A stretch of 64,000 nt of DNA from Enterobacteria phage GEC-3S. A program made the translations under genes and the position numbers. Below, one piece after another: positions 17,336 to 63,222 of the stretch. The notes beneath the pieces were generated by a model, which made no database searches, was not told where the DNA came from, and saw nothing but the letters and a program-made list of their open reading frames with translations. Within the stretch, counting starts at the first letter, position 1; every line of letters starts with the position of its first letter. The stretch is from sequence record HE978309. One strand, written 5' to 3'.

Positions 17336-19387
17336 TTACATTTTAAATTTATCTGGCATTGCGTCTACAGATACCAGATCAGCGATAAGCTGACGTAGAG
17401 TTGCCTTATCTGCTTTCTTACGTTCGGTTTTAGCTTCGCTAATGAAGCTGGAGAAAGACAGGTCAGAAGCAGGTTTAACAACACCCTCACGGATGAATGC
17501 ATCACCGTCCGCGATCATCTCGCCAGATTCTTGTAATGCTGCCAGTTCACTTTTGTTCATAATATGTGCCTCAATGTAATAAGTTTCTTGTGAATCCGTA
17601 GATGCCGTAGCACGAGTTACCGTATCAAAGGATAACACAACACCGCGAGGAAGTAAAATCTCGCATTCTTTGTAAGCAAATGCTTTGTTACCTACTGGCA
17701 ATACAGGGATGTTTTCCGCGCCAGCAATGGAGAAAGCAACATTAGCGCCACCTTCACCGCGAGATCCAGCCATAGAATCTACCCCAGCAACGGCACTAGC
17801 CACGTTTGCATTCCAGCCGCCAAAAATGTTAGGTGCAAGGGAAGTGCTCACGTAGTTTTTAAAGTAAAACGCTTTTTGCTTACGTGCAGTTTCCCACATT
17901 TGAGACCGGAAGTCCATACCACGATACAGAATAGTACCCGGATCAAGTTTAACGCCATAGTTAGAGAAGGCATTATCCAGTGCATCGCACATCTTGACCA
18001 ATTCTTCTGGATCTGCGATTCCCTCAAACTCTTCCAGCTTGCGATCAGTTAGGAAGTTGTTCATATTGATGTATGCTGCATCGGCATATTCGCTCAACAC
18101 AAAACCTTCCGCGCCCGGCAGATCAAGATCAATATCTGCCATCATTTCACCCATGTTGCTAGCAATTGCTTCAAACATACCGGAAGCAACATTACGAAGG
18201 GCATCGGTTTTAATCTGGGTGATATGACTACGCAGCATTTCAGCTTTTACATCTGCTGGCATAGACTGGTCTACTCGATCCATTGCCAGGGCGGTGATCT
18301 TGTTTTCGAATACTTCCTCGCTCATGATTTCTTTTAAGCGTTTGATTGATGCTGCGATAACTTCCGCAGACAACGGATCATATTGATCCTGAACTTTTAC
18401 CAGTTCGCTTACTGCGTATTTTGCATCGGCTTCGCTTTCAAAAATAGTACGCATGAAACCATAGCGAGTGATAATATCACTTGTCCAGTCATTCAGAGAA
18501 CGGGCGGTTGAACGTTCTAAGGCTTGACGGTCAATCAGAGTATTAAACTGTTTCTTAGGTTCTGCTTCGGTGATATCTTCTTCCGGTTTAAGATTAATTT
18601 TTTCTGGATGATTCACATAGTCGCTGTTATAGGTCGCTTGAGTTTTCAGCATTTCTTCTTTAGTCAAACGAGATTTAGCCGCTACGCGTTGTTCTGCTTC
18701 CGCGTTTCGTTCTTCTTCTGACACAAGACTAGCCGCATATGCCTCATCTTTAGTCAGAGATTCACCAGTAGCCTTAGATACCCAGCGATCACCTAAATCA
18801 CTTTCTACTTTAGTGAACAAGGATTCATCAAGTTTAATCCCTTTAATCTTATCAATCGCCATCCCGCGACGCTTGACAACAACTAAAGCGATCTTTTTGC
18901 TGGTCATTACTTCCTGCTGGAATACTTCAAACTTCGGTGTACGACGCACCAAACGCTCTATAACGCGCTTAACCAGTTCGGTCTTACCTTTCATGCGGGA
19001 TACGTTAAAACGGAACATAACAGCGTCTAATTGCGCTTTACGGGCTGTTTCCATAACCACATCAAACGCACTTGCCATAACTGCAATCGGGTTATCGCCT
19101 AGACCATTTTTAAGCTGTACAATACGACCGCTTTTGTTCATTTCGCACAGTACAACATGTGCGGTCTTGTCGCCCATACGAATGATTTTAGGTGTTTTGT
19201 TGGTGAAGTTACAAAGACGGACAATCACATCTTTATCGCGTGTCTGTACTGCAAAAAGCTGTTTAGGATTCTGCTTAGGCTTTAAGCACTGTACCGGAGC
19301 AATACTGCCAAAGTTTTCTTCCTCTTCCGTCAACAGCCATTTCTCGAAAGATTCAATCATTAGATCGTCGATTTCTAAGTTAAACAT
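17336..19387 (-). CDS. alt: Alt ADP-ribosyltransferase
   Basis: 683 aa (T4 Alt 682 aa), T4 position next to gene 54; ILYRGMDFR, NYVSTSLAP, YKECEILLPRG motifs. Confidence 0.85.
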   Translation of the reverse strand: MFNLEIDDLMIESFEKWLLTEEEENFGSIAPVQCLKPKQNPKQLFAVQTRDKDVIVRLCNFTNKTPKIIRMGDKTAHVVLCEMNKSGRIVQLKNGLGDNPIAVMASAFDVVMETARKAQLDAVMFRFNVSRMKGKTELVKRVIERLVRRTPKFEVFQQEVMTSKKIALVVVKRRGMAIDKIKGIKLDESLFTKVESDLGDRWVSKATGESLTKDEAYAASLVSEEERNAEAEQRVAAKSRLTKEEMLKTQATYNSDYVNHPEKINLKPEEDITEAEPKKQFNTLIDRQALERSTARSLNDWTSDIITRYGFMRTIFESEADAKYAVSELVKVQDQYDPLSAEVIAASIKRLKEIMSEEVFENKITALAMDRVDQSMPADVKAEMLRSHITQIKTDALRNVASGMFEAIASNMGEMMADIDLDLPGAEGFVLSEYADAAYINMNNFLTDRKLEEFEGIADPEELVKMCDALDNAFSNYGVKLDPGTILYRGMDFRSQMWETARKQKAFYFKNYVSTSLAPNIFGGWNANVASAVAGVDSMAGSRGEGGANVAFSIAGAENIPVLPVGNKAFAYKECEILLPRGVVLSFDTVTRATASTDSQETYYIEAHIMNKSELAALQESGEMIADGDAFIREGVVKPASDLSFSSFISEAKTERKKADKATLRQLIADLVSVDAMPDKFKM

Positions 19388-19427
19388 TTTATATCCTCTA
19401 GTTGATAACCTATAAACCTATATTTAT

Positions 19428-19455
19428 GAAAAAGGGGCTTAACGCCCCCTTTTAT
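19428..19455. terminator. Hairpin terminator between small early gene and alt
   Basis: AAAAA-GGGGC-TTAA-CGCCCC-TTTTA. Confidence 0.6.
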
Positions 19456-19667
19456 TATAATGCACCATCGAGCAATTGCTCTAAGGTGTATCCTGAATAG
19501 TCTTTTTCAATCAGGGTATATTTTCCTACTCGTTTAATACAACCGCGCATTTCCACGTATTCTGTGTAGTTGATGGTACGAGTTGTTCCATCTTCCAGTA
19601 ATGCAGTACCGATTTCGTTAATGCGGTCATAAGTTACGTCGGTAATGATGATTTCGATGTTAGCCAT
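19455..19667 (-). CDS. Hypothetical early protein (70 aa)
   Basis: ORF preceded by GGAG RBS and own sigma70-like promoter. Confidence 0.55.
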   Translation of the reverse strand: MANIEIIITDVTYDRINEIGTALLEDGTTRTINYTEYVEMRGCIKRVGKYTLIEKDYSGYTLEQLLDGAL

Positions 19668-19701
19668 TTGATACTCCTTAGTAGTTCGTTTCGGTATGGG
19701 T

Positions 19702-19733
19702 GTATTATGATATACACCCTCTGTTATGTCAAC
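19702..19733 (-). promoter_or_regulatory. Sigma70-like early promoter
   Basis: Minus strand AAAAAGTTGTTGACA ... CATAAT, conserved leader CCGAAACGAA plus GGAG RBS. Confidence 0.55.
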
Positions 19734-19739
19734 AACTTT

Positions 19740-19919
19740 TTAGAACATTTTTGAAATTAATTTTGCTTTGATTTCGCAGAGAACACCTAAAGATTTCTCG
19801 TCACCCGCTTTTGCTGCTTCTGATTGCATTTTTGAAATGGCTTCAATGTCAGTGCAATTATAAGCCGCTTGAACTTTAGCGATTGCGATGATTGCCGATT
19901 CGATGGTTAAGTGTTTCAT
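19740..19919 (-). CDS. Hypothetical early protein (59 aa)
   Basis: MKHLTIESAIIAIAKVQAAYNCTDIEAISKMQ...; RBS GGAGAATCAA; below ORF-track cutoff. Confidence 0.45.
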   Translation of the reverse strand: MKHLTIESAIIAIAKVQAAYNCTDIEAISKMQSEAAKAGDEKSLGVLCEIKAKLISKMF

Positions 19920-19951
19920 GTTTGATTCTCCTTTCGTTTCGGTATGTGTGC

Positions 19952-19981
19952 ATTATAGGGGATCACCGATCCCCTGTCAAC
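19952..19981 (-). promoter_or_regulatory. Sigma70-like early promoter with palindromic spacer
   Basis: TTGACA - GGGGATCGGTGATCCCC (17 nt) - TATAAT on minus strand. Confidence 0.6.
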
Positions 19982-19987
19982 AACTTT

Positions 19988-20506
19988 TTAGTTATTTTTT
20001 AATTGCTCATCTTGCAATAGGGAAATCACATGCTGGCGATGTTCTTCCGATTGAGGAACACCGAAAAAGTTTGTTTTGTAGAAATACTCTAATCGGTCTT
20101 CTCGTGTGCTCTCTTCCATCATGATCGCGGGTAGTCCGAGATTTCGGAAACGTCGCTTTTCTGCTGGCGTAAAATCACTGTAATACAACATAGAATCATC
20201 ATTACCCGCAATGCTAAATTCATCCTTCATAAAGGAGAATATTGCGTTTAAACGCTGTTTACCGTCCACGATTTCGATCTCATAGCGAGATCCATCATCA
20301 ATCTTAGCCATTGCGATAGCACCAACCGGAAAATCATTAATCAGGTTTTCGATAAACATACGTTTGTTTTCGGTGTCCCATACCAAAGGACGCTGATAAT
20401 CTGGGTTCATGTTGATATAGCCATCTTCTAACCACGCCTCATAAACAGAGATGACAAAGTTTTTAGTATTGGTATAGTAACGGCGTTTAGGCGTTAAACG
20501 GTTCAT
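19988..20506 (-). CDS. DUF262 / ParB-like nuclease-domain protein
   Basis: NPDYQRPLVWD ... IVDGKQRLNAI resembles DUF262 DGQQR-type motif; ATG at 20506 with GGAG RBS, adjacent to stop of upstream gene. Confidence 0.6.
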   Translation of the reverse strand: MNRLTPKRRYYTNTKNFVISVYEAWLEDGYINMNPDYQRPLVWDTENKRMFIENLINDFPVGAIAMAKIDDGSRYEIEIVDGKQRLNAIFSFMKDEFSIAGNDDSMLYYSDFTPAEKRRFRNLGLPAIMMEESTREDRLEYFYKTNFFGVPQSEEHRQHVISLLQDEQLKNN

Positions 20507-20507
20507 G

Positions 20508-20840
20508 TTATAGTCTCCTGAATGGATCATCACGTAAATCAATATCTTTTAAGAACTCATCCCATGAATGGCGGATATTGTTCTTAATTCTCCAGATAAG
20601 CGCAGGGATTGAACGCTCTCCCATCTGGAAGTAGGGATCATATGATCCGTATGCCCAATATGCTACTACAATTCCACAATCAGCGCAATAGTATTCTATT
20701 TCACTTGCTGGCGACCAAATTCCATCAATATGATCGGTGATCCTGCTTTCGATGTTATGGCTATGGCAATCAGGGCAACGGATGCAATGACCTTGTTTAT
20801 CGTAATTTGACGTTAGCGAATACTTAAACAATCTCATCAT
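20508..20840 (-). CDS. Cys/His zinc-ribbon-like protein (110 aa)
   Basis: CIRCPDCHSH ... CADCG; ATGA overlap with upstream methyltransferase-like gene. Confidence 0.55.
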   Translation of the reverse strand: MMRLFKYSLTSNYDKQGHCIRCPDCHSHNIESRITDHIDGIWSPASEIEYYCADCGIVVAYWAYGSYDPYFQMGERSIPALIWRIKNNIRHSWDEFLKDIDLRDDPFRRL

Positions 20841-21553
20841 AGATCCTTATTGGCTTCAAATACTGCCTTTGCGAATCCTCGCGGGGTAAGTGACCTGATA
20901 GTCTTTGTTCTGGTTCCTTTCCCGCCTAGCTTAGAATGCTGTTTACTGTACCCTTTATTAATATGCAACGGTTTCTTTTCTGGCATTATAAAGCCTTGTC
21001 CGGTCCATAAGCAAGTCTTTTTCGGGTACATATCACGGGCGGCGATATACTCAGGAAACGTAGGATGTTTATCATCTTCCGGCAAATAACCGCCATATTC
21101 CCACGGATGGAACATGTAATCAGGCTTACGCCACATACTAGAGATAACGCTTACAGGATTCTCTATCATGTAGGGAACTCCTAGCCATTCACCCAAATAA
21201 GCGGTTATTTTAGCTGCCCGTACATCATGAACTTGAATCAACGGTCCTTGTTCTCGTTTCTTTCGTTCAAAGTGTGCAGCGCCACTAACAGCTAAATTGG
21301 TACACGGTGGGAATGCAAAGATAATATCCGGTTTCCCCCATTCAAGGTCCATTGCTCTTTCCAGCCAGTTCAAATCAATCCAGGTGTTTACATAGGTAAT
21401 GTTTGGATGTTCAAATCTGGTATTATACTTTTTGTATGTACCGTGGTCGGCGTCATCCGCATTAAAGCAGACTACCTTATGACCTGCTTTAGCCCATTCT
21501 AGACCCATTATCCCCGATCCATCAAAGTTGCAGAATATTAATTTTTGTTTCAT
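20837..21553 (-). CDS. Compact DNA (cytosine-5)-methyltransferase-like protein
   Basis: Motif I FCNFDGSGIMG, motif IV FPPCTNLAVSG, motif VI MIENP, C-terminal RSLTPRGFAKA in canonical C5-MTase order; only 238 aa. Confidence 0.6.
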   Translation of the reverse strand: MKQKLIFCNFDGSGIMGLEWAKAGHKVVCFNADDADHGTYKKYNTRFEHPNITYVNTWIDLNWLERAMDLEWGKPDIIFAFPPCTNLAVSGAAHFERKKREQGPLIQVHDVRAAKITAYLGEWLGVPYMIENPVSVISSMWRKPDYMFHPWEYGGYLPEDDKHPTFPEYIAARDMYPKKTCLWTGQGFIMPEKKPLHINKGYSKQHSKLGGKGTRTKTIRSLTPRGFAKAVFEANKDL

Positions 21554-21795
21554 ATACGACCCTTTAACCCAGCACAGATTTTAGTCGGTTCTTTACCGTG
21601 CCACATTAAGTAAAGTCCGTTAATGCGACCTTGTTTTGTGTGTGATTCTTTTCTGATCTTCTTATAGTGTCGTGCTTCCTCAACTGATTGTTTAGAATAC
21701 CAATCATAAAGGAAGAGGCACAAAGGCCAACCATTAGCGGCCTTAATGCAGTTATTAAGAAATTCCTTATTGCGTTTAATTAATTTTCTTTTCAC
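21550..21795 (-). CDS. Hypothetical basic protein (81 aa), GTG start
   Basis: GTGA overlap with upstream gene and ATGA overlap with downstream gene. Confidence 0.45.
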   Translation of the reverse strand: MKRKLIKRNKEFLNNCIKAANGWPLCLFLYDWYSKQSVEEARHYKKIRKESHTKQGRINGLYLMWHGKEPTKICAGLKGRI

Positions 21796-22043
21796 GCTGC
21801 CCCCGTTGGTTTGATAGTAACAGAATCTAAAAGACCTTTGTTAGCCAGTTCGCGGCAAGTTTTCAGATCCGCAACTTCCCAGCCAGCCGCAATCAGGTTA
21901 TCAATCAGGCTGTTAGCAACTTCTTCGCTCATGAAAGAGCACTGTTTGCCGATGGTGTAGCGTACACGCTGTAATTTCAGTTTACGGAAGCCTTTAACGT
22001 TCAGGTCTTTAGCGATTTTCTTTGCGGTTTCGATGTTAGCCAT
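21792..22043 (-). CDS. Hypothetical protein (83 aa), first gene of five-gene operon
   Basis: Own sigma70-like promoter and GGAGAATCAA RBS. Confidence 0.55.
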   Translation of the reverse strand: MANIETAKKIAKDLNVKGFRKLKLQRVRYTIGKQCSFMSEEVANSLIDNLIAAGWEVADLKTCRELANKGLLDSVTIKPTGAA

Positions 22044-22083
22044 TGTTTGATTCTCCTAAGTGGTATCTCGTCTTGATGGTTGT

Positions 22084-22113
22084 ATTGTAGGGGAGTTATC
22101 CTCCCCTGTCAAC
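22084..22113 (-). promoter_or_regulatory. Sigma70-like early promoter with palindromic spacer
   Basis: TTGACA - GGGGAGGATAACTCCCC - TACAAT on minus strand. Confidence 0.6.
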
Positions 22114-22126
22114 ACTTTTTATAAAA

Positions 22127-22294
22127 TTATTTGTTAATTTCTGGTGCGTTGCTAGGATAGTAACCTTCTTTAACTCCGAGGTATTTCGCAACCATCCCTA
22201 CAATCTTCTGTGCTACTACAATGTCAAATTTCAGATAATCTTCGCCGTAGGTTTCAATGATATATGCTTCACATGCTGCTTTAGTCTCGAACAT
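22127..22294 (-). CDS. Hypothetical early protein (55 aa); paralog of 25403..25570
   Basis: MFETKAACEAYIIETYGEDYLKFDIVVAQKIVGMVAKYLGVKEGYYPSNAPEINK; near-identical C-terminus to 25403..25570. Confidence 0.45.
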   Translation of the reverse strand: MFETKAACEAYIIETYGEDYLKFDIVVAQKIVGMVAKYLGVKEGYYPSNAPEINK

Positions 22295-22329
22295 TTTGAT
22301 TCTCCTATATTTCGTTTCGGTATGGGTGT

Positions 22330-22359
22330 ATTATAGGGGATCTCCCGATCCCCGTCAAC
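22330..22359 (-). promoter_or_regulatory. Sigma70-like early promoter with palindromic spacer
   Basis: TTGACG - GGGGATCGGGAGATCCCC - TATAAT on minus strand. Confidence 0.6.
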
Positions 22360-22372
22360 AACTTTTTTAAAA

Positions 22373-22654
22373 TTATTCGTGATTAGTTTCGATGTTGTGC
22401 ATTTTGCACCAGTTCAGCCAATCGACCAGGTCTTGATAGTTGATGCTTTTATCTGCTGCCATCGTTTTTGTCTTGATACCCATATGTGCGTTATGAGTAA
22501 GCATTTTTACAGTGAACTCAATTTTATCGCCTTTAGCTTTAACATCAACCAGTTTGGTCCACTGGCTACCAGCGCCGCGAATGTTCATGCCAACGATGTT
22601 TCCGATGTATGCTTCTTTGTTTTTCAGGATTTCGGTTGCTTTGATGAATTTCAT
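22373..22654 (-). CDS. Hypothetical early protein (93 aa)
   Basis: ORF with own promoter and GGAGAATCAAA RBS. Confidence 0.55.
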   Translation of the reverse strand: MKFIKATEILKNKEAYIGNIVGMNIRGAGSQWTKLVDVKAKGDKIEFTVKMLTHNAHMGIKTKTMAADKSINYQDLVDWLNWCKMHNIETNHE

Positions 22655-22687
22655 TTTTGATTCTCCAGTTCGTTTCGGTATGGGTGT

Positions 22688-22717
22688 ATTATGCTATGTT
22701 CTTACTTTGGTGTCAAC
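22688..22717 (-). promoter_or_regulatory. Sigma70-like early promoter
   Basis: TTGACA - 17 nt - CATAAT on minus strand. Confidence 0.55.
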
Positions 22718-22724
22718 AACTTTT

Positions 22725-22994
22725 TTAGATATTTTCAGAAATAAATTTTAAAACTTGACGTAAATGTTTCTCATCTTTGATAGTCGCCGGAAGTTCTTCT
22801 TTTACTTCCTGTGCAAGATAGATATTTCCGTTCCAAGTGAAAGATCCGTCTTCGTTTACGCGATAGCTGAACATCCACTCGCAATCATTTTCGATTTCAT
22901 ATACACATAGAAGAGTATAATCTTCAAAGCTATTGATTTCAAGGTCGAAGCCGTGACGTTTTGCAAAGTTGGTAGTGGTTTTAGTCAGTGCCAT
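22725..22994 (-). CDS. Hypothetical early protein (89 aa)
   Basis: ORF with own promoter and GGAGAATCAAA RBS. Confidence 0.55.
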   Translation of the reverse strand: MALTKTTTNFAKRHGFDLEINSFEDYTLLCVYEIENDCEWMFSYRVNEDGSFTWNGNIYLAQEVKEELPATIKDEKHLRQVLKFISENI

Positions 22995-23034
22995 TGTTTG
23001 ATTCTCCTAAGTGGTATCTCGTTTCGATGGGTGT

Positions 23035-23065
23035 ATTATGCTATAGGCGTGATCTGGTGTCAATT
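23035..23065 (-). promoter_or_regulatory. Sigma70-like early promoter
   Basis: TTGACA - 18 nt - CATAAT on minus strand. Confidence 0.5.
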
Positions 23066-23086
23066 CTTTTTTTAAATTTTATGCAA

Positions 23087-23116
23087 TAAAAAAGCCGACG
23101 CTATGGTCGGCTAATA
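23087..23116 (-). terminator. Hairpin terminator after 23120..23428
   Basis: A-run then GCCGAC-GCTATG-GTCGGC on plus strand. Confidence 0.5.
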
Positions 23117-23119
23117 AAA

Positions 23120-23428
23120 TCATTTAGACAAATAATCATTCAGTGCAATCCGGTCGGCGTATGCTGGTGTTACGTCAATCGCAATCACTTTAACGCGTGC
23201 TTTCTTGCGACCTGGGTTTTCACGTAACCAGTGCTCATGACCGTGAACATTTTTATACTGCGATGCTTCTTCGAAGGTACGGATCGGACCTGGGTAATCA
23301 GCGTAAAGGATCTCTAGATCTTCGGTGATGTAAAAATATACATCGTAATTGCTGTTCTCTAGCTTAAGCAGAGACTTTCGGAACATTGGGAGATTTTCGC
23401 GGGTAAATTCAAAGATATTATCTTTCAT
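23120..23428 (-). CDS. HxHW-motif family protein (paralog 1 of 6)
   Basis: VHGHEHWL...VKVIAIDVTPAYADRIA shared pattern with five other ORFs. Confidence 0.55.
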   Translation of the reverse strand: MKDNIFEFTRENLPMFRKSLLKLENSNYDVYFYITEDLEILYADYPGPIRTFEEASQYKNVHGHEHWLRENPGRKKARVKVIAIDVTPAYADRIALNDYLSK

Positions 23429-23452
23429 AGTATTATCCTCAATAGTTGGATG

Positions 23453-23472
23453 AAAAGGGGCGTTAACGCCCC
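23453..23472 (-). terminator. Hairpin after 23479..23766
   Basis: AAAA-GGGGCG-TTAA-CGCCCC on plus strand. Confidence 0.45.
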
Positions 23473-23478
23473 CATATA

Positions 23479-23766
23479 TTAAAACAGTCCTTCCTGTACA
23501 CCGTAGTAGAGTTCGTCGCTGATAATTTCATTAATGCGACGGTGTGCATATTCCTGATTTGCGAAGTTGTCAGCAAGTTCTATTTTAGTTTCGCCGTCAT
23601 GAGTCCATTTAGTGATAACTTTACCATCTGCAAATTTGAAGTTGAACTCTTTAGCTACTGCATCGCGTACCAGACGTGCAAACTTATTGTTGCGGATTGC
23701 ATTGTCGGTTTCGTGTGCAGCGTGAGCAAATTTGTTAACTTTCAGAGTGATAGTGATGTATGCCAT
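23479..23766 (-). CDS. Hypothetical early protein (95 aa); shares AKEFN motif with 26806..27117
   Basis: ORF with own promoter and GGAGAATCAAA RBS. Confidence 0.55.
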   Translation of the reverse strand: MAYITITLKVNKFAHAAHETDNAIRNNKFARLVRDAVAKEFNFKFADGKVITKWTHDGETKIELADNFANQEYAHRRINEIISDELYYGVQEGLF

Positions 23767-23812
23767 AATTTGATTCTCCTAGTTAGAAAGTGTATCTCGT
23801 TTCGATGGGGAT

Positions 23813-23842
23813 ATTATGCTATATCCCCGATCCGGTGTCAAC
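23813..23842 (-). promoter_or_regulatory. Sigma70-like early promoter, palindrome spanning -10
   Basis: TTGACA ... GGGGATAT-AGCATA-ATATCCCC containing CATAAT. Confidence 0.55.
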
Positions 23843-23847
23843 ACTTT

Positions 23848-24126
23848 TTATAAAATAATTTTTTGATATTTTTCTATGATGTTCGTGTAAGTCACATCAA
23901 CCGCTAGCACTGTTGCTTCGAATCCACCGTTTAGCCAATGGCTATGATCATGGTCGTGAAAGAAACCTAGACCAGTACGAAGACCTTCTTTATATTCTGC
24001 GCGTACATTCAGTTTGTCGTCGATAAACAGATAAAACCATGAATTTTTACTAGGATTGATGATACAACCTTTCAGATTAGGGAGAATATCACGACTAAGA
24101 ATAAACTTATCACCTACTTTGAACAT
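23848..24126 (-). CDS. HxHW-motif family protein (paralog 2)
   Basis: FHDHDHSHWL...TVLAVDVT; internal ATG at 24126 with GAGGA RBS. Confidence 0.55.
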   Translation of the reverse strand: MFKVGDKFILSRDILPNLKGCIINPSKNSWFYLFIDDKLNVRAEYKEGLRTGLGFFHDHDHSHWLNGGFEATVLAVDVTYTNIIEKYQKIIL

Positions 24127-24130
24127 AATA

Positions 24131-24451
24131 TTAGTCCTCACTTATAAGGTCAAACCAATTGTTTTTCGCATAATGCTTAATGCGTGCTTGATCTGCTTCC
24201 GCTGGTGATAGATTCCATGCAACCACTACAACTTCTGACGCATCGTCATCAGTTTCCGATACCCAATGATTGTGATTCATACAGTTATTTGCTATCGAGT
24301 GAGCAAATGATTTCATCACTGGAGACGTATAATCATAGTAACGGATTTTCAGATTTTCATCAACATACAAATAGATCGTATAAGGTTTATATTCAGTAAC
24401 AAGTAACAGACAGTTACGCAATTCTGGGAAAATCTTTTTAGTTAATTTCAT
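24131..24451 (-). CDS. HxHW-motif family protein (paralog 3)
   Basis: MNHNHWVSE...VVVVAWNLSPAEADQA. Confidence 0.55.
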   Translation of the reverse strand: MKLTKKIFPELRNCLLLVTEYKPYTIYLYVDENLKIRYYDYTSPVMKSFAHSIANNCMNHNHWVSETDDDASEVVVVAWNLSPAEADQARIKHYAKNNWFDLISED

Positions 24452-24653
24452 ATTCTAGTTCTCCGTAATACACGGTAATCCATTTTTCTTCATATTTTGT
24501 ATCTTTCCAGCACACAATACCGTTTACTGTGCAATCTTTGGAATTGACGAATGATTCATATTGTTCCGCATCTTCCATCATTTCATGAGCGGTCTTTTCA
24601 TCGAATATATCGCAGATCGCTTTATATGCTCGATAATCTTTAAATTTGCTCAT
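24438..24653 (-). CDS. Hypothetical small protein (71 aa); tandem paralog of 24656..24865
   Basis: Both start MSKFKDY[RK]AY; internal ATG at 24653. Confidence 0.45.
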   Translation of the reverse strand: MSKFKDYRAYKAICDIFDEKTAHEMMEDAEQYESFVNSKDCTVNGIVCWKDTKYEEKWITVYYGELEYEIN

Positions 24654-24655
24654 AA

Positions 24656-24865
24656 TTAACACCACTCAAGAGTTTTTGAAAACACATCTATCCATTGTTG
24701 AGTATATGCGGTTTCTTTCCATGATACAATACCAGTCGAATAATGGTTTTTGTTTCCAGAAAAGGACGGGCATTTTGATGCATCTTCCATCATCTTTTCG
24801 GCGAACTCTGGTTCGTATACTCGCAAGATCTGTTGATATGCTTTATAATCTTTAAACTTACTCAT
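24656..24865 (-). CDS. Hypothetical small protein (69 aa); tandem paralog of 24438..24653
   Basis: ATGA overlap with upstream gene. Confidence 0.5.
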   Translation of the reverse strand: MSKFKDYKAYQQILRVYEPEFAEKMMEDASKCPSFSGNKNHYSTGIVSWKETAYTQQWIDVFSKTLEWC

Positions 24866-25146
24866 AACAACACCACCGATACATCGTAATCATTCGCGAC
24901 CTTATCGGCTTCTTCAACCGACATAATACCTTCTGCGACAATTGGCATAGGGTGATCGTGATTCCACCAATGGTCATGTATATCAATTTCAGTTTTGCCG
25001 GAAAATGAATCATGTTTGACGTTTTTCACTTTATACCCGATGTGACCGTCGTGGTCAATAAAGATATAGTTTCCGAAAATCGGTGTCTGTAAAATCATAC
25101 CGAAAAATTTTTCTTTGTTGTTCGGGTCGAGTGTAATCATTTTCAT
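24862..25146 (-). CDS. HxHW-motif family protein (paralog 4)
   Basis: IDIHDHWWNHDH...AEGIMSVEEADKVA; AAGAGG RBS. Confidence 0.55.
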   Translation of the reverse strand: MKMITLDPNNKEKFFGMILQTPIFGNYIFIDHDGHIGYKVKNVKHDSFSGKTEIDIHDHWWNHDHPMPIVAEGIMSVEEADKVANDYDVSVVLL

Positions 25147-25158
25147 AATATATTCCTC

Positions 25159-25338
25159 TTAGAAAGGGATGGTCATTTCTTGAGCTTGTACATTCTCGTT
25201 AGGATTAAACTTCATCCAACCGATATTGTCTACCAGCATATGCACATTTTTATCATATCCTACGTGAGTAGTCAACACTAAATGTGCTTTACATTCAACG
25301 ATGATTTCCATGTACTTCTGAACTTCGATAGCTTTCAT
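25159..25338 (-). CDS. Hypothetical early protein (59 aa)
   Basis: MKAIEVQKYMEIIVECKAHLVLTTHVGYDKNVHMLVDNIGWMKF...; GGAGAATCAAA RBS; below ORF-track cutoff. Confidence 0.45.
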   Translation of the reverse strand: MKAIEVQKYMEIIVECKAHLVLTTHVGYDKNVHMLVDNIGWMKFNPNENVQAQEMTIPF

Positions 25339-25370
25339 TTTGATTCTCCGTTTGTTGTCTTGATGGGAGT

Positions 25371-25400
25371 ATCTTACTACTCCCTTTAATCATTGTCAAC
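25371..25400 (-). promoter_or_regulatory. Sigma70-like early promoter (GGGAGTA...TACTCCC palindrome around -10)
   Basis: TTGACA - 17 nt - TAAGAT; palindrome identical to copies near 35.02 and 61.85 kb. Confidence 0.5.
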
Positions 25401-25402
25401 GA

Positions 25403-25570
25403 TTATTTGTTAATTTCTGGTGCGTTGCTCGGATAGTAACCTTCTTTAACACCCAGATATTTTGCAACCATTCCGGTGATCTTCTGTGCTACTACGATAT
25501 CGAATTTCAGGTAGTCTTCACCGTGGTTTGCTACAATGTATGCTTCGCATTCTGCTTTAGTCTGGAACAT
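25403..25570 (-). CDS. Hypothetical early protein (55 aa); paralog of 22127..22294
   Basis: MFQTKAECEAYIVANHGEDYLKFDIVVAQKITGMVAKYLGVKEGYYPSNAPEINK; internal ATG of ORF-track ORF 25403..25636. Confidence 0.5.
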   Translation of the reverse strand: MFQTKAECEAYIVANHGEDYLKFDIVVAQKITGMVAKYLGVKEGYYPSNAPEINK

Positions 25571-25604
25571 TTTTGATTCTCCTATATCTCGTTGGTATGT
25601 GTGT

Positions 25605-25634
25605 AGTATAGGGGATCGGTGATCCCCTGTCAAC
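25605..25634 (-). promoter_or_regulatory. Sigma70-like early promoter with palindromic spacer
   Basis: TTGACA - GGGGATCACCGATCCCC - TATACT on minus strand. Confidence 0.6.
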
Positions 25635-25641
25635 AACTTTT

Positions 25642-25950
25642 TTATTCTTCATCTTCATTTTTATCTTTATATGCGTACTTCATAAATTTGTCTGCTACTT
25701 TGTCCGCGTTTTCAGGTTCTACGTCTGACGCTAGGACAACAGCTAGTTCGGTTTTGTCGTTTCCGTCATACCAATGATTATGAGTGTCGTTTTCTTCGAT
25801 ATAAAACGAATCATTTGGAGTTGTTCGACAATATACGTCTAAATTCCCATCGATATAAAAGATCCAATCCGAATACAAAATGATTGCTTTAGCCAGATTT
25901 TTATTGTCTCTTACAAAAGGTTCCGCGACAAATAGCTTAGTTTGTTCCAT
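25642..25950 (-). CDS. HxHW-motif family protein (paralog 5)
   Basis: NDTHNHWYDG...ELAVVLASDVEPENADKVA; ATG at 25950 with GAGGAA RBS. Confidence 0.55.
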   Translation of the reverse strand: MEQTKLFVAEPFVRDNKNLAKAIILYSDWIFYIDGNLDVYCRTTPNDSFYIEENDTHNHWYDGNDKTELAVVLASDVEPENADKVADKFMKYAYKDKNEDEE

Positions 25951-25966
25951 AATATTTTCCTCAAAA

Positions 25967-26158
25967 TTATACAGCTTCGTAAACTTCCCAATGTTCAGCG
26001 CCAACACGCTTAACGAAAAGGTTTTCTTTGATGTTATTCATAAACGTCTGGATAGATTTAATGCGGTTGGAAGGTTTCCAGTCTTCGTTGGCATTGCGGC
26101 GATACATAATAACATTACCAGTTCGCTTATATTCAGCAACCATTTTAAGATCACACAT
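25967..26158 (-). CDS. Hypothetical small protein (63 aa)
   Basis: ORF with GAGGA RBS. Confidence 0.45.
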   Translation of the reverse strand: MCDLKMVAEYKRTGNVIMYRRNANEDWKPSNRIKSIQTFMNNIKENLFVKRVGAEHWEVYEAV

Positions 26159-26215
26159 AATATTATCCTCAATTTGTGGGAGAGTATTACCCCTCCCAAT
26201 GATTGTTATGTTATA

Positions 26216-26536
26216 TCACACAAAATGGCGTGTCAATGCTTCTTTTGCGGTTCCGCTAAGACTTTCGATCTCGCCTGGCATAACATCAACCGCCAGAACT
26301 TCGACAACATCCTCGGACCCTAACCAGTGAGTATGGCCTTTGTAGAACTTGATAACCAGACTACCTTCCTCATCCCATTTAACGCTATCGCTAGCCCACC
26401 ACACATCACCGTCGATAAAGTTGATGTAAAGCACACTACGCCACATTGAATTAATTACTTTCAATACTGCGCCTTTCATCTCTTCCACGGTATGGTCTTC
26501 CATTTTGAAGACCTCACCTACCTGAACTTTTGCCAT
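26216..26536 (-). CDS. HxHW-motif family protein (paralog 6)
   Basis: YKGHTHWLGSEDVVEVLAVDVMP; GAGAGGTGA RBS. Confidence 0.55.
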   Translation of the reverse strand: MAKVQVGEVFKMEDHTVEEMKGAVLKVINSMWRSVLYINFIDGDVWWASDSVKWDEEGSLVIKFYKGHTHWLGSEDVVEVLAVDVMPGEIESLSGTAKEALTRHFV

Positions 26537-26553
26537 TTAGTCACCTCTCTTTA

Positions 26554-26733
26554 TTACATAACAATCACGCCAGCCGTTGAAAGTTGATGTTTCAACTGAG
26601 CATTTTCTGCTACCGTCAAATCAATGATTTCTTGTGACGCTGCAATCATATATCCATTGGTGATATTGTTTTGCATCAGTTCAATGGTTTCTTCGTTGTA
26701 GCGGATTTTAGCGATGATTTCGTTGAAGTTCAT
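26554..26733 (-). CDS. Hypothetical early protein (59 aa)
   Basis: MNFNEIIAKIRYNEETIELMQNNITNGYMIAASQEIIDLTVAENAQLKHQ...; GGAGAATCAATC RBS; below ORF-track cutoff. Confidence 0.45.
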   Translation of the reverse strand: MNFNEIIAKIRYNEETIELMQNNITNGYMIAASQEIIDLTVAENAQLKHQLSTAGVIVM

Positions 26734-26767
26734 GATTGATTCTCCTAGTTCGTTTCGGTATGTGTGT

Positions 26768-26798
26768 ATTATAGGGGATCTCCCGATCCCCTGTCAAC
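26768..26798 (-). promoter_or_regulatory. Sigma70-like early promoter with palindromic spacer
   Basis: TTGACA - GGGGATCGGGAGATCCCC - TATAAT on minus strand. Confidence 0.6.
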
Positions 26799-26805
26799 AA
26801 CTTTT

Positions 26806-27117
26806 TTAAAGTTTTTCCATGATAACGGTCATAATTACATCTTCTGCGCGAGCGGTCAGATTATCAGCGTCAGCATGTGGGCGGTTGGTTGTTACAGAGA
26901 TAGCACCGTTGCGCACTGGTTTGATATTGATATCAAGATGATCCGCGAAACGTTCGCCAGTTACAGAATGAATTTTGGTGTTAAATTCTTTTGCCAGTGC
27001 CTTGCGAACTTCACGAATCAGGGTAGCGTTTTTCAGTTGGTTCTCCGCGCTCATGGTCTTCTGGGTGTTCATGGTTCCGTCGAAGTCAATCATTGGCAGC
27101 GTTACGATGTATTTCAT
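26806..27117 (-). CDS. Hypothetical early protein (103 aa)
   Basis: ORF with own promoter and GGAGAATCAAA RBS. Confidence 0.55.
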   Translation of the reverse strand: MKYIVTLPMIDFDGTMNTQKTMSAENQLKNATLIREVRKALAKEFNTKIHSVTGERFADHLDINIKPVRNGAISVTTNRPHADADNLTARAEDVIMTVIMEKL

Positions 27118-27162
27118 TTTTGATTCTCCGTTTAAGAAAGTGTGTTTCGTTTTGATGTGTGT

Positions 27163-27193
27163 ATTATAAGGGGATCACCGATCCCCTGTCAAC
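27163..27193 (-). promoter_or_regulatory. Sigma70-like early promoter with palindromic spacer
   Basis: TTGACA - GGGGATCGGTGATCCCC - TATAAT on minus strand. Confidence 0.6.
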
Positions 27194-27204
27194 AACTTTT
27201 TGAA

Positions 27205-27681
27205 TTATTTTTCTTGATGCTCGCGCTCGTACTTTTCGAAATAAAATTCTACTGGCTGATCGTGGATTGAAAGCAAGCCAAAGCGTTTAGCCGCTCGCAA
27301 TCCCATATTGCGCTGAATGTACTTCTGGAAGTTCTCGCGTATACACTTACGCCAGTATTCTAAGCCCATACAGCTTTTATAAAGATTGCATTGCACACAC
27401 GCCGGATTCATGTTATCAAGTATATCATGTTCCGGTTTATGCATTCCTACAACCTTATACTTCCACGATCCATCATCATTACGGGCAATTCGTCCATTTT
27501 CATCATAGACTACCTTTGAGCGTCGCAATACTGGTTTGATATGGTCTGCGTGCCAGCGATCCCCTAGTTCCTCGCCACAATAGGCACAACGCCCACCGTA
27601 TTTCATTTTCAGGATCTGGCGTTGCTCTTTCTTTGACAATTTTTTAGGTTTAGGGGCTTTCGCCCCTTCATTATCACACAT
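27205..27681 (-). CDS. HNH homing-endonuclease-like protein
   Basis: CAYCG ... WHADHIKP ... CVQCN (HNH-type Cys/His motifs); overlaps 3' end of ligase gene by 8 nt. Confidence 0.7.
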   Translation of the reverse strand: MCDNEGAKAPKPKKLSKKEQRQILKMKYGGRCAYCGEELGDRWHADHIKPVLRRSKVVYDENGRIARNDDGSWKYKVVGMHKPEHDILDNMNPACVQCNLYKSCMGLEYWRKCIRENFQKYIQRNMGLRAAKRFGLLSIHDQPVEFYFEKYEREHQEK

Positions 27682-29170
27682 CGAATACCTCTTTTACTGT
27701 ATTTGCCGTGGTCTTGTCGTAGCGAATACGTTTGATGATCGGGAGAAATAAAGAGAACTCCGGTTCATCTTCTTTACGTGATTTGCTGCGAATGTACCCG
27801 TTGCATGTCATCTCAATGACTTTTCCGACCAGGTTATGCCGTTCAGCCCATAACATTTCTCGGTCAAGTTCATTTCGACGATCGAACGGAATTACACGTT
27901 CAGTACCATCATCACCTTTTTCGGTTGTAGTGTCGGTTAATCCCGATCCGGTGTTAGTCATCATTCGTCCGCACGCACTACGGACAGTAAAACCGCCTAC
28001 CTTATTGGGGTCTTTACTATGCGGATATACATCAACAATTTCCGCGTCGAAGTCAATAACTTCTTTAAATTTAACCTGATCTTTACTGCGACGATCTTCA
28101 AATACACCATGTAAATTTTTAAGGATAATACCTTCTAAGCCCATGTTTACATAGCGATGATATACTTCGCGAGCTTCATCGATATTGTTAACTACGGTAT
28201 TTTCGATTATCTGAACACGAGGATCGTTAAGTTCTTCAACAATCTGTTTTAGTTCTTCGAATCGATCTTTATATTGCTTCGTTGCTTTCTCGTTTCCGTA
28301 ATACACATCACGGTCGATAACATCCCAGACAGTGTAAACAATACATTGGGCTTCTTCTTTTGGAATAGTTCCTTTCAGTGATTTGTTGAGGATACCATTT
28401 CCGGTCTGACGATCTGCAACAACGGATTCTTTCACCGCTTCCGCTACTGGCGTTAATGGCATTTCCTCTTCTTCAAATATCCATGACAGAGTACCATCAT
28501 AAACGCTCTCAACGAAGTTCTGCGCTGGTGTTTGCGAAAGGGTAGGCATATATACCAATTCGCCATCTAGAACAATTCCACGGCCTCGTAGACGCTCTAA
28601 AACCGCAAACAAATCATCAAGCCCTTGATAGGTATTACCTGAGCGGGTATAGATTGCTAATGTTTCCCCGTCAATATCAGCCATACCACGAGCGCCATCG
28701 CTTTTAAGTTGTGCATACGCCGGATACTTGATATTAGAAATAGTCTTATCAGAACATGACGATGCAAGGTGGCACGGTTGCTGAGGGATCAGTTTCTTCC
28801 ATACCTTGTTTGCAGTGGTAGCGGAACAACCGCATTCCAGGTCACGATTCAGGACCATCATTGCAACTTTAGCATCATCCTCTGACAAGCAAGTCAGAGT
28901 ATCGGTAACTAGCTGTAATGCTGCGTTGCCAGTTACTTGACGCGTGGCAAGTTTATTTTTAAAGACCTGTAATGCACCGGATAAAGACAATACAGACGAA
29001 TAGCGAGATGGTTTATCGTATTTCTTTACGCCAAACGTAACCTGTTTGCAATATGCCAGATAAAAGCATTCTTTCAGCGTTTCATTGCTCGCGGATTCTT
29101 TCAGAATCTTTTCTTTCAGCGATGTTTTGTCTGTTGCTGCAAGCTGATTAATGATATTAAGAATTGACAT
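27674..29170 (-). CDS. 30: ATP-dependent DNA ligase gp30
   Basis: Aligns with T4 DNA ligase (AQLKSDGAR KxDG site; TRQVTGNAA; NRDLECG; ANKSLKGTI.KEEAQC; EGIILKN); ATG at 29170 with GAGGTG RBS. Confidence 0.93.
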   Translation of the reverse strand: MSILNIINQLAATDKTSLKEKILKESASNETLKECFYLAYCKQVTFGVKKYDKPSRYSSVLSLSGALQVFKNKLATRQVTGNAALQLVTDTLTCLSEDDAKVAMMVLNRDLECGCSATTANKVWKKLIPQQPCHLASSCSDKTISNIKYPAYAQLKSDGARGMADIDGETLAIYTRSGNTYQGLDDLFAVLERLRGRGIVLDGELVYMPTLSQTPAQNFVESVYDGTLSWIFEEEEMPLTPVAEAVKESVVADRQTGNGILNKSLKGTIPKEEAQCIVYTVWDVIDRDVYYGNEKATKQYKDRFEELKQIVEELNDPRVQIIENTVVNNIDEAREVYHRYVNMGLEGIILKNLHGVFEDRRSKDQVKFKEVIDFDAEIVDVYPHSKDPNKVGGFTVRSACGRMMTNTGSGLTDTTTEKGDDGTERVIPFDRRNELDREMLWAERHNLVGKVIEMTCNGYIRSKSRKEDEPEFSLFLPIIKRIRYDKTTANTVKEVFDV

Positions 29171-30197: not shown

Positions 30198-30238
30198 AAT
30201 TTTATTACCTCTTCAAATCAATACAGTTTAATGATGAA

Positions 30239-34538: not shown

Positions 34539-34588
34539 TATCCTTTCCTCACGTCACAACAAAGGCGGGATTTCTCCCGCCCACCTTA

Positions 34589-34987: not shown

Positions 34988-35020
34988 CTTGATACTCCTT
35001 AGTTGTTTTAGTATTGGAGT

Positions 35021-35050
35021 ATCTTACTACTCCCGTGATATGCTGTCAAC
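35021..35050 (-). promoter_or_regulatory. Sigma70-like early promoter (GGGAGTA...TACTCCC palindrome around -10)
   Basis: TTGACA - 17 nt - TAAGAT. Confidence 0.5.
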
Positions 35051-35057
35051 TGCTTTT

Positions 35058-35207
35058 TTATGCAACCGCAAACATCAACATTTGAACATTCTTGGCTGTC
35101 TGGCTTTCAAAGTTCTGACATTCTTTGATAATGTCCTCTACTTTCTCTCCGGAGATCTCCGCGTAAGTTTCGATTGCCATTTTCAGTACCGCGTCAAAGT
35201 TGTTCAT
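35058..35207 (-). CDS. Hypothetical early protein (49 aa)
   Basis: MNNFDAVLKMAIETYAEISGEKVEDIIKECQNFESQTAKNVQMLMFAVA; GGAGAATCAAATG; below ORF-track cutoff. Confidence 0.45.
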   Translation of the reverse strand: MNNFDAVLKMAIETYAEISGEKVEDIIKECQNFESQTAKNVQMLMFAVA

Positions 35208-35245
35208 TTGATTCTCCTTAAAGTGTATTTCGTTTCGATGGGGGT

Positions 35246-35275
35246 ATATTAATACCCCCGTTATTCAGTGTCAAC
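35246..35275 (-). promoter_or_regulatory. Sigma70-like early promoter with GGGGGTAT...ATACCCCC palindrome
   Basis: TTGACA - 17 nt - TAATAT. Confidence 0.5.
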
Positions 35276-35493: not shown

Positions 35494-35522
35494 TTTGATT
35501 CTCCTTTGTTTCTTGGTGGGGT

Positions 35523-35552
35523 ATATTACTACCCCCGTTATTCAGTGTAAAC
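35523..35552 (-). promoter_or_regulatory. Sigma70-like early promoter (GTTTACA -35)
   Basis: GTTTACA - 17 nt - TAATAT with GGGGGTAGTAATATACCCC palindrome. Confidence 0.5.
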
Positions 35553-35801: not shown

Positions 35802-35831
35802 ATTATGCTATGGTAAGATCCGATTGTCAAC
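35802..35831 (-). promoter_or_regulatory. Sigma70-like early promoter
   Basis: TTGACA - 17 nt - CATAAT. Confidence 0.55.
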
Positions 35832-35841
35832 ACCCAATAAC

Positions 35842-35872
35842 AAAAAAGTCGCCACTATGGGCGACTTTGAAC
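35842..35872 (-). terminator. Hairpin terminator after HAD-like gene
   Basis: A-run then GTCGCC-ACTATGG-GCGAC on plus strand. Confidence 0.5.
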
Positions 35873-38084: not shown

Positions 38085-38118
38085 GAATTATAGCGGGGAT
38101 TTCTCCCCGCGTCAACAC
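38085..38118 (-). promoter_or_regulatory. Sigma70-like promoter with embedded terminator-like hairpin after nrdA
   Basis: TTGACG - GCGGGGAGAAATCCCCGC - TATAAT on minus strand. Confidence 0.45.
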
Positions 38119-61815: not shown

Positions 61816-61848
61816 AATATATTCCTCAATGTTTTTCTTGATGGGAGT

Positions 61849-61878
61849 ATCTTACTACTCCCTTAATCCGGTGTCAAC
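61849..61878 (-). promoter_or_regulatory. Sigma70-like early promoter (GGGAGTA...TACTCCC palindrome around -10)
   Basis: TTGACA - 17 nt - TAAGAT; same palindrome as near 25.37 and 35.02 kb. Confidence 0.5.
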
Positions 61879-62097: not shown

Positions 62098-62129
62098 GTG
62101 ATTCTCCTTCTTTCGTTTCGGTGTGGTAG

Positions 62130-62160
62130 TATGTTAATACTCCCATTTCTTTACGTCAAC
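62130..62160 (-). promoter_or_regulatory. Weak sigma70-like promoter (TTGACG -35, poor -10)
   Basis: -35 TTGACG with conserved leader CCGAAACGAA; -10 hexamer not clearly matched. Confidence 0.3.
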
Positions 62161-63148: not shown

Positions 63149-63178
63149 ATTATGCAATGCTGGATTTGTGAAGTCAAC
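63149..63178 (-). promoter_or_regulatory. Sigma70-like early promoter
   Basis: TTGACT - 17 nt - CATAAT. Confidence 0.5.
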
Positions 63179-63197
63179 AACTTTTTAAAATAAAAAA

Positions 63198-63222
63198 AGC
63201 CGACCACAAGGATCGGCTTAAT
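63198..63222 (-). terminator. Hairpin terminator after 63229..63624
   Basis: A-run then AGCCGA-CCACAAGGA-TCGGCT on plus strand. Confidence 0.5.

Follow-up and report, generated by a model that had tools for sequence, protein, structure and literature searches.

Palindrome-bearing early promoters of phage GEC-3S as very probable members of the PeSL cassette family

Introduction

Sequence record HE978309 of Enterobacteria phage GEC-3S includes a stretch of 64,000 nucleotides (nt), hereafter the window, in which a series of early promoters carry GC-clamped palindromes in or next to the spacer between their -35 and -10 hexamers. All genes at 16-48 kilobases (kb) of the window lie on the minus strand, as judged by GC skew and the open reading frame (ORF) map. 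By the annotation of Escherichia phage Phi1, the palindromes are located among the small hypothetical ORFs 185-212, downstream of the DNA ligase gene 30 and upstream of alt. Phi1 belongs to the genus Krischvirus (Straboviridae), within the RB49 or "pseudo-T-even" group, and is 98.8% identical to the window across positions 19000-28000 and 98.3% identical across 17000-39000; the remaining matches to the window all come from the same genus. The palindromic promoters are very probably promoter-early stem-loops (PeSLs), the ~90-nt intergenic cassettes of RB49/Phi1-type T4-like coliphages that combine an early promoter, a stem-loop present in read-through RNA and a patch of homology.

PeSLs were described by Arbiol et al. 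(2010; PMC2839356), whose counts were 52 for Phi1 and 51 for RB49; most of these lie in hyperplastic regions and precede genes of unknown function. A PeSL, as they define it, comprises a stop codon within an AT-rich tract, -35 and -10 hexamers of sigma70 consensus, a stable stem-loop that is often of the polyG...polyC type, a Shine-Dalgarno (SD) sequence and a start codon. Five subclasses are distinguished by the position of the stem, which may lie between -35 and -10, overlap -10, overlap -35, or lie upstream or downstream (Arbiol et al., 2010). The concept was later widened to other T4-like phages (Comeau et al., 2014; PMC4122927). In RB49, which has neither motA nor middle promoters, the early promoter consensus has a C at each of -3 to -1 and is in agreement with 5'-end mapping (Nolan et al., 2006; PMC1524935).

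Palindromic promoter cassettes of the window

A motif search of the window finds exactly five GGGGATC(N3-4)GATCCCC inverted repeats, all on the minus strand. Each is perfect, fills the spacer and contains two GATC sites, as the first-pass annotation of this DNA had reported, and no match occurs in any of 100 dinucleotide-preserving shuffles. A second palindrome, GGGAGTATCTTACTACTCCC, had been described as three identical copies wrapped around the -10 hexamer. The copies at 25365 and 61843 are indeed identical, whereas the one at 35015 has a terminal mismatch; a further relative, with three mismatches, lies at 62125. By chance, 0.01 matches to the palindrome would be expected. Two copies had likewise been claimed for GGGGGTAT..ATACCCCC, but a single exact one is present (35240-35259), and its nearest kin are GGGGTA..TACCCC, GGGTGTAT..ATACACCC and GGGGATAT..ATATCCCC (Table 1). 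Two additional spacer-filling stems of other sequence, GGGGAG..CTCCCC and GCGGGGA..TCCCCGC, had gone unlisted.

Conservation extends beyond the palindrome to the entire ~90-nt cassette. Its consensus reads AAAAAGTTG-TTGACA-stem-TATAAT-ACACACATACCGAAACGAA-AGGAGAATCAAA-ATG, and can also be written AAAAAGTTG-TTGACA-(17-18 nt)-TATAAT-ACACCCATACCGAAACGAA...AGGAGAATCAAA-ATG. The AT-rich tail AAAAAGTTG ahead of TTGACA holds the stop codon of the upstream gene, which adjoins the -35 hexamer, as first described, at a distance of 3-14 nt. At all listed sites, the hexamers match the sigma70 consensus at 10-12 of 12 positions across a spacer of 16-18 nt, on the minus strand. The motif AGGAGAATCAAA-ATG follows 40-70 nt past -10, and the downstream genes are the hypothetical ORFs 185-210. 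One example, on the minus strand at 19990..19917, reads ...TAACTAAAAAGTTG-TTGACA-GGGGATCGGTGATCCCC-TATAAT-GCACACATACCGAAACGAAAGGAGAATCAAAC-ATG, with its promoter core at 19980..19952. In a second class of cassettes, the stem GGGAGTA/TACTCCC encloses the -10 hexamer TAAGAT, which lies in the loop and extends by one base into the 3' arm. The stems comprise 6-9 base pairs (bp), with folding free energies of -7 to -14 kcal/mol.

A strict census accepted a cassette if its hexamers matched the consensus at 10 or more of 12 positions, if a hairpin with an energy of -7 kcal/mol or lower lay within -45 to +20, and if an SD sequence and start codon followed within 90 nt. Stems were ranked by energy, since a longest-stem finder that allowed G·U pairs picked AT-rich pseudo-stems. 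The census returned 15 cassettes in the window, all on the minus strand and nine of them in the span covered by the first-pass annotation, and 36 in Phi1; nearly all cassettes of the two genomes lie on the early-gene strand.

The placement of the stems is equally restricted. Strong perfect hairpins on the minus strand of the window number 34, compared with 3-12 in block shuffles, and 13 of these 34 lie inside promoters in three registers only. In coordinates that start at the first base of the -35 hexamer, the stem occupies the spacer at positions 5 to 22-24 (spacer class), spans positions 13/15 to 34 and so stops roughly one base short of the predicted +1 (-10-wrapping class), or lies at -42..-15 and is followed by a T-run (upstream class). 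The C residues at -3 to -1 of the RB49 consensus correspond to the 3' arm of the -10-wrapping stems. Embedded stems are found 9-20 nt past the stop codon of the upstream gene. Because they end before the predicted +1, the transcript of the promoter itself would lack the stem, and only read-through RNA would carry it.

Two features accompany the promoters. The transcribed leader ACACACATACCGAAACGAA, between -10 and SD (19920-19950, 22295-22328, 26735-26766 and others, minus strand), shows the same degree of conservation as the promoter when paralogous PeSLs are compared, and an SD region of the form GGAG(A/T)ATCAA precedes ATG by 5-8 nt in 11 of 13 PeSLs (19917-27207, minus strand). GGAG within an SD sequence is the cleavage motif of the T4 endoribonuclease RegB, and Phi1 encodes regB (phi1p094). 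Because of this shared motif and the presence of regB in Phi1, PeSL-driven messages may be inactivated together after the early period. In the -10-wrapping class (25365-25384, 35240-35259, 61843-61862), the 3' arm yields a very GC-rich discriminator (ACTCCC, ACCCCC). GC-rich discriminators are typical in Escherichia coli of promoters sensitive to ppGpp/DksA and to supercoiling, and these PeSLs could depend on the physiological state of the host.

Table 1. PeSL cassettes of the window and insertions or deletions bounded by them (z, z-score of the predicted RNA hairpin)
Element	Class	Span	Strand	-35	Stem-loop	-10	z	Other features
PeSL186/185	-10-wrapping	19665..19742	-	19727-19732	GGGTGTAT-ATCATA-ATACACCC 19698-19719	CATAAT 19704-19709	-3.9	ATG of ORF185 19665-19667
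PeSL187/186	spacer	19917..19990	-	TTGACA 19975-19980	GGGGATC-GGT-GATCCCC 19958-19974	TATAAT 19952-19957	-2.6	SD GGAG; ATG of ORF186 19917-19919; upstream stop 19988-19990
PeSL191/190	spacer, different stem	22041..22129	-	22107-22112	GGGGAG-GATAA-CTCCCC 22090-22106	TACAAT 22084-22089	-5.2	
PeSL193/191	spacer	22292..22375	-	TTGACG 22353-22358	GGGGATC-GGGA-GATCCCC 22336-22353	22330-22335		
PeSL199/198	-10-wrapping	23764..23850	-	23836-23841	GGGGATAT-AGCATA-ATATCCCC 23807-23828	CATAAT 23813-23818	-3.0	
PeSL205/204	-10-wrapping	25336..25405	-	25394-25399	GGGAGTA-GTAAGA-TACTCCC 25365-25384	TAAGAT 25371-25376	-4.2	
PeSL206/205	spacer	25568..25644	-	25628-25633	GGGGATC-ACC-GATCCCC 25611-25627	TATACT 25605-25610	-3.5	
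PeSL210/209	spacer	26731..26808	-	26792-26797	GGGGATC-GGGA-GATCCCC 26774-26791	26768-26773	-3.3	GNRA-type loop, sense strand
PeSL upstream of ORF210	spacer	27115..27207	-	27187-27192	GGGGATC-GGT-GATCCCC 27170-27186	27163-27168		
PeSL core	-10-wrapping	35015..35049	-	35044-35049	GGGAGTA..TACTCCA 35015-35034	TAAGAT 35021-35026		terminal G·A mismatch, 6-bp stem
PeSL core	-10-wrapping	35240..35274	-	35269-35274	GGGGGTAT-TAAT-ATACCCCC 35240-35259	TAATAT 35246-35251	-2.5	
Weaker PeSL	stem wraps -10	35518..35551	-	TTTACA 35546-35551	GGGGTA-GTAATA-TACCCC 35518-35535	TAATAT		
PeSL	upstream-terminator	35802..35868	-	35825-35830	AAAGTCGCC-CATAGT-GGCGACTTT 35845-35868	CATAAT		T-run between hairpin and -35
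PeSL core	spacer	38087..38115	-	TTGACG 38110-38115	GCGGGGA-GAAA-TCCCCGC 38093-38110	TATAAT 38087-38092	-4.3	GNRA loop
PeSL core	-10-wrapping	61843..61877	-	61872-61877	GGGAGTA-GTAAGA-TACTCCC 61843-61862			
Degenerate PeSL core		62125..62159	-	TTGACG 62154-62159	GGGAGTAT-TAAC-ATACTACC 62125-62144			one internal G·A mismatch (perfect in Phi1)
PeSL	upstream-terminator	63149..63219	-	TTGACT 63172-63177	AAGCCGATC-CTTGT-GGTCGGCTT 63197-63219	CATAAT		hairpin precedes -35
ORF186 unit	PeSL-bounded indel	19933..19708						
ORF191 unit	PeSL-bounded indel	22295..22134						
Insertion	PeSL-bounded indel	at 23063 PeSL						~410-430 nt
ORF210 unit	PeSL-bounded indel	27146..26823						
Unit	PeSL-bounded indel	35204..35065						

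Correspondence to published PeSLs

The five GGGGATC palindromes have intergenic counterparts in Phi1, namely 187/186, 193/191, 206/205, 210/209 and 212/210. Window positions 19980, 22358, 25633 and 26797 thus correspond to PeSL187/186, PeSL193/191, PeSL206/205 and PeSL210/209, and position 27192 to the PeSL upstream of ORF210, which is named 211/210 in RB49 and 212/210 in Phi1. Three window cassettes are the same or almost the same as those of Phi1 across 88-116 nt. PeSL210/209, one of the two PeSLs that flank ORF210, matches Phi1 at 116 of 116 positions, and PeSL206/205 is identical in the two phages from the upstream flank through the SD sequence. The window elements also share with the published PeSLs their lineage, positions, sequences, stem placements, AT-rich tail, SD and start codon, and their association with small genes and with indels. 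The spacer-filling and -10-wrapping placements noticed in the first-pass annotation are two of the published subclasses. Every defining sequence feature of the PeSL family was looked for in the window and is present.

Judged by sequence, the window elements are orthologues of the published PeSLs, and their description in the first-pass annotation is a correct rediscovery of elements already known. Since the PeSL account was published in 2010 and 2014 for the same lineage, the finding adds no new biology. That annotation overlooked a third published role of PeSLs, the chief one in the literature, as scattered segments of homology through which gene cassettes are gained and lost. The GATC content of the palindromes, the strand asymmetry of G·U and A·C pairs and the missing U-tract of embedded stems, all discussed below, are unmentioned in the PeSL papers (Arbiol et al., 2010; Comeau et al., 2014).

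The promoter activity of one of these orthologues has been measured. A wild-type PeSL206/205 clone gave ~13,000 Miller units, and most other clones acquired mutations in -35 or -10 (Arbiol et al., 2010), which suggests that the PeSL promoter is toxic when cloned.

The distribution of the cassette follows the genus. An 88-nt cassette is restricted to 57 Krischvirus records, each of which has it at 6-11 places, and the combination of TTGACA with the palindrome is found in IMG/VR in two contigs only, of 150-165 kb. The bare palindrome was rejected as a diagnostic because it resembles a generic terminator-like hairpin: it occurs in single copies in more than 120 unrelated IMG/VR contigs, with a T-run after ~30% of the oriented copies, and is therefore uninformative alone. 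The upstream flank AAAAGTTGTTGACA also proved unspecific as an IMG/VR probe, with more than 120 random single matches, and was dropped.

Conservation of pairing and the operator and methylation readings

Folding predicts an RNA hairpin for 11 of the 11 elements folded, with z-scores of -1.9 to -5.2. Covariation was examined in 40 distinct -10-wrapping cores from the window, Phi1, the RB49-species genome OZ035808, G37-3, JK32 and two IMG/VR contigs. In two sets of these cores, 98% and 92% of cells are paired, with compensatory changes among A-U, G-C and U-A at one pair in the first set and at three in the second. The observed values were reached by at most 1 of 500 shuffles, and shifting the register lowers pairing to 32-76%. 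A search of Rfam with positions 17-39 kb of the window, on both strands, gave no match up to E = 1.

The non-Watson-Crick pairs are distributed asymmetrically. On the sense strand of the -10-wrapping class, transition pairs are G·U or U·G in 8 cells and A·C in none. Spurious "C·A" and "A·A" pairs, from stems extended into the fixed ACA and TAT of the hexamers, are excluded from the comparison of G·U with A·C. The spacer class has three stem variants with G·U, in Phi1 PeSL193/191 and JK32 PeSL206/205 (both GGGGGTC..GATCCCC) and in Phi1 GCGGGGA..TCCCCGT, compared with one with A·C, G37-3 AAGGGAG..CTCCCCT. The tetraloops GGGA and GAAA are of GNRA type on the sense strand only. Together, the asymmetry and the sense-only GNRA loops favour selection on the sense single strand, that is, at the level of RNA.

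This pattern bears on the operator role proposed in the first-pass annotation. On such a reading, a dimeric phage or host protein bound to the dyad would switch the early promoters off or on. The dyad symmetry does fall within the core promoter, and a protein bound there would obstruct RNA polymerase; the PeSL authors themselves speculated that GGGG...CCCC is a protein target, though for recombination (Arbiol et al., 2010). However, at least seven unrelated stem sequences (GGGGATC, GGGGAG, GCGGGGA, GGGAGTA, GGGGGTA, GGGTGTAT and GGGGATAT) occupy the same register. Within one family, the loop may have 3, 4 or 5 nt and any sequence, so that the spacing of half-sites is not fixed, and the compensatory changes and tolerated G·U pairs indicate that pairing is conserved and sequence is not. 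We know of no candidate repressor for these palindromes. An operator role is thus very unlikely.

Sensitivity of the promoters to Dam methylation, which had been suggested as well, or to SeqA through the paired GATC sites is hardly to be expected. The GGGGATC family does contain two GATC sites 7-8 bp apart within the spacer, and the phage has genes for a Dam methyltransferase and for two further DNA methyltransferases. The pair is nevertheless confined to one stem family, in 5 of ~17 window PeSLs, and lies in the spacer and not in the hexamers contacted by sigma. Moreover, pairing is kept while GATC is lost in Phi1 PeSL193/191 and JK32 PeSL206/205 and in the RB49-type PeSL211/210 (..ACGTATCCCC). 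In the Phi1 and JK32 orthologues the loss results from an A-to-G change that retains a G·U pair; the Phi1 PeSL193/191 5' arm, GGGGGTC, has one GATC fewer. Nor is there any genome-wide bias, as GATC occurs 353 times in the window where 331 are expected, and the 10 sites of the palindromes are ordinary among hundreds.

A restriction-site explanation for the palindromes was considered and rejected. As a separate observation, GGCC is strongly depleted in the window, with 22 observed against 67 expected from trinucleotide frequencies, and AGCT stands at 0.64 of expectation, while GATC is not depleted. The scarcity of GGCC and AGCT may reflect restriction-site avoidance in a phage with unmodified cytosine.

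Termination, attenuation or protection of 3' ends

Read as a PeSL, each cassette on the minus strand has four parts. An AT-rich tail containing the stop codon of the upstream gene is followed by a promoter close to the sigma70 consensus, for use by the host RNA polymerase in early infection, and by a GC-clamped stem-loop placed where the promoter accepts any sequence. The unit is completed by a conserved leader with its GGAG Shine-Dalgarno sequence and by the start codon of a small gene without assigned function. In read-through RNA, the stem would end or attenuate the upstream transcript or shield its 3' end. As the stem is limited to read-through RNA, this would insulate each small gene as its own transcription unit. 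The first-pass annotation had proposed the same dual role, as early promoter and as hairpin at the 3' end of read-through transcripts, and this proposal agrees with the published account (Arbiol et al., 2010), with stems that end before the predicted +1, with the compensatory changes and with the G·U bias. From these sequence features we infer that all stems act on RNA, by true termination or by 3'-end stabilisation.

Reporter data are consistent with the first of these two modes. The PeSL211/210 stem-loop, whose window counterpart is the PeSL upstream of ORF210 at 27192, lowered lacZ expression about as much as rrnB T1 (Arbiol et al., 2010); the stem assayed was either the Phi1-type GGGGATCGGTGATCCCC or the RB49-type GGGGATCACGTATCCCC. 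Like intrinsic terminators, embedded stems are GC-rich hairpins soon after a stop codon.

Several points count against the PeSL reading of the stems. Embedded stems of the spacer and -10-wrapping classes have no U-tract: they are followed by TATAAT.. or ATCAAG.., with 1-4 T in the next 8 nt, unlike intrinsic terminators. The upstream-class PeSLs (35845-35868, 63197-63219) and the free-standing hairpins at 23093-23112 and 34564-34581, by comparison, are canonical terminators with T-runs, having 5-7 T in the same interval. A terminator scan of the window calls no embedded stem on the sense strand, and the ARNOLD terminator annotations of the G37-3 record omit the embedded stems. Terminator-like activity has been published for one stem-loop only, as a drop in lacZ and not as a mapped 3' end (Arbiol et al., 2010). 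The asymmetry between G·U and A·C amounts to about ten events that are incompletely independent. A literature search for Krischvirus transcriptome papers returned nothing relevant.

It is accordingly possible, though doubtful, that embedded stems are protective or processing hairpins and not true terminators, with read-through RNA trimmed to the stem or cut near it and the upstream message stabilised. Such a role, which is compatible with the PeSL model and would apply chiefly to the -10-wrapping class, suits the scarcity of T residues after the stems and the silence of terminator predictors, as well as stable hairpins 9-20 nt past stop codons whose pairing is selected on the sense strand. Yet one spacer-class stem-loop, cloned alone, lowered the expression of lacZ downstream of it to a similar extent as rrnB T1 (Arbiol et al., 2010), a result that fits termination or attenuation better than mere stabilisation.

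The fixed register and the missing U-tract can also be accommodated if termination is coupled to occupancy of the PeSL promoter. An upstream polymerase would form the hairpin on meeting a polymerase parked at the very strong PeSL promoter, and the collision would supply the pause normally given by the U-tract, so that insulation would depend on an active promoter. This coupling is quite improbable, as is a lesser variant in which the paired-GATC subfamily is tuned by the phage Dam methyltransferase.

PeSLs as sites of gene gain and loss

Recombination between neighbouring PeSLs yields mini-circles whose crossovers were mapped within PeSLs, and the ORF210 unit is among them (Arbiol et al., 2010). 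In the window, this unit is flanked by the PeSLs at 26797 and 27192. PeSL193/191 is likewise the site of a published ORF192 indel (Arbiol et al., 2010). Comparison of positions 17-39 kb of the window with G37-3, JK32 and the RB49-species genome reveals five indels that have both ends inside PeSLs and an overlap in homology of 20-95 nt (Table 1). In the RB49-species genome OZ035808, a chimeric PeSL joins the promoter and stem of 187/186 to the SD sequence of 186/185; the crossover falls in ATACCGAAACGAA, the leader common to both. The stem GGGGGTA..TACTCCC, which combines the arms of two families in three genomes, fits the published within-loop crossovers. The ~50 cassettes per genome resemble one another and would therefore serve as patches of homology at which the phage recombination machinery deletes, inserts or swaps single-gene units.

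An alternative holds that the stems act on DNA, as hairpins or cruciforms that are extruded in replication or recombination and then cut or bound by structure-specific phage enzymes such as endonuclease VII or gp46/47, and that PeSLs are active recombination hot spots and not passive homology. The phage encodes gp49 and gp46/47, the crossover of an RB49 mini-circle has been placed inside the loop (Arbiol et al., 2010), and the chimeric stem occurs in Phi1, the RB49-species genome and G37-3. Other crossovers fall outside the stem, however, in the AT-rich region or the leader (Arbiol et al., 2010) or, in OZ035808, in the shared 5' leader. At 7-8 bp, and with loops of 3-6 nt, the stems are very short for cruciform extrusion, and the bias of G·U over A·C marks one strand, which a duplex-symmetric mechanism would not predict. 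Direct action of the stems on DNA is therefore improbable.

Two further observations concern gene content. ORF191 and ORF205, on the minus strand, begin with nearly the same codons, ATGTTCGAGACTAAAGCAGCATGTGAA at 22268-22294 and ATGTTCCAGACTAAAGCAGAATGCGAA at 25544-25570, and both follow spacer-class PeSLs of the GGGGATC family; each PeSL with its gene thus resembles a cassette duplicated from a common paralogue. In G37-3 (L138 7616-8220; window ~30220-30246), an insertion of ~640 nt encodes a NUMOD4-motif protein of homing-endonuclease type and, unlike the other indels of the region, has no PeSLs at its ends.

Relation to other modular systems and significance

PeSL cassettes resemble several known arrangements of accessory genes. 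Like the moron cassettes of lambdoid phages, they comprise small accessory genes with their own promoter and terminator, insulated from their neighbours. In PeSLs, however, one conserved element combines the terminator of a unit with the promoter of the unit that follows, and this element supplies homology for exchange, whereas morons are not thought to move via their regulatory sequences (Arbiol et al., 2010).

Integron gene cassettes with their attC sites are comparable as single-gene cassettes between imperfect palindromes that pass through circular excised intermediates. PeSLs differ in that the element contains its own promoter and crossovers are not confined to the stem. To our knowledge, no integrase or other site-specific recombinase has been identified for PeSLs.

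The internal-protein loci of T-even phages also have early promoters beside stem-loops that flank highly variable small genes. As summarised by the PeSL authors from Repoila (1994), these elements have the T4-type early consensus and weaker AT-rich stems without polyG/polyC arms, and the same authors regard them as analogues and not homologues of PeSLs (Arbiol et al., 2010).

With PeSLs, a lytic phage can accommodate dozens of very small accessory genes, each of them expressed separately, insulated from its neighbours and open to exchange. The point of interest that remains is how embedded stems without a U-tract insulate transcription, be it by termination, attenuation or 3'-end protection. 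More broadly, PeSLs were proposed as "linker" sequences behind modular phage evolution.

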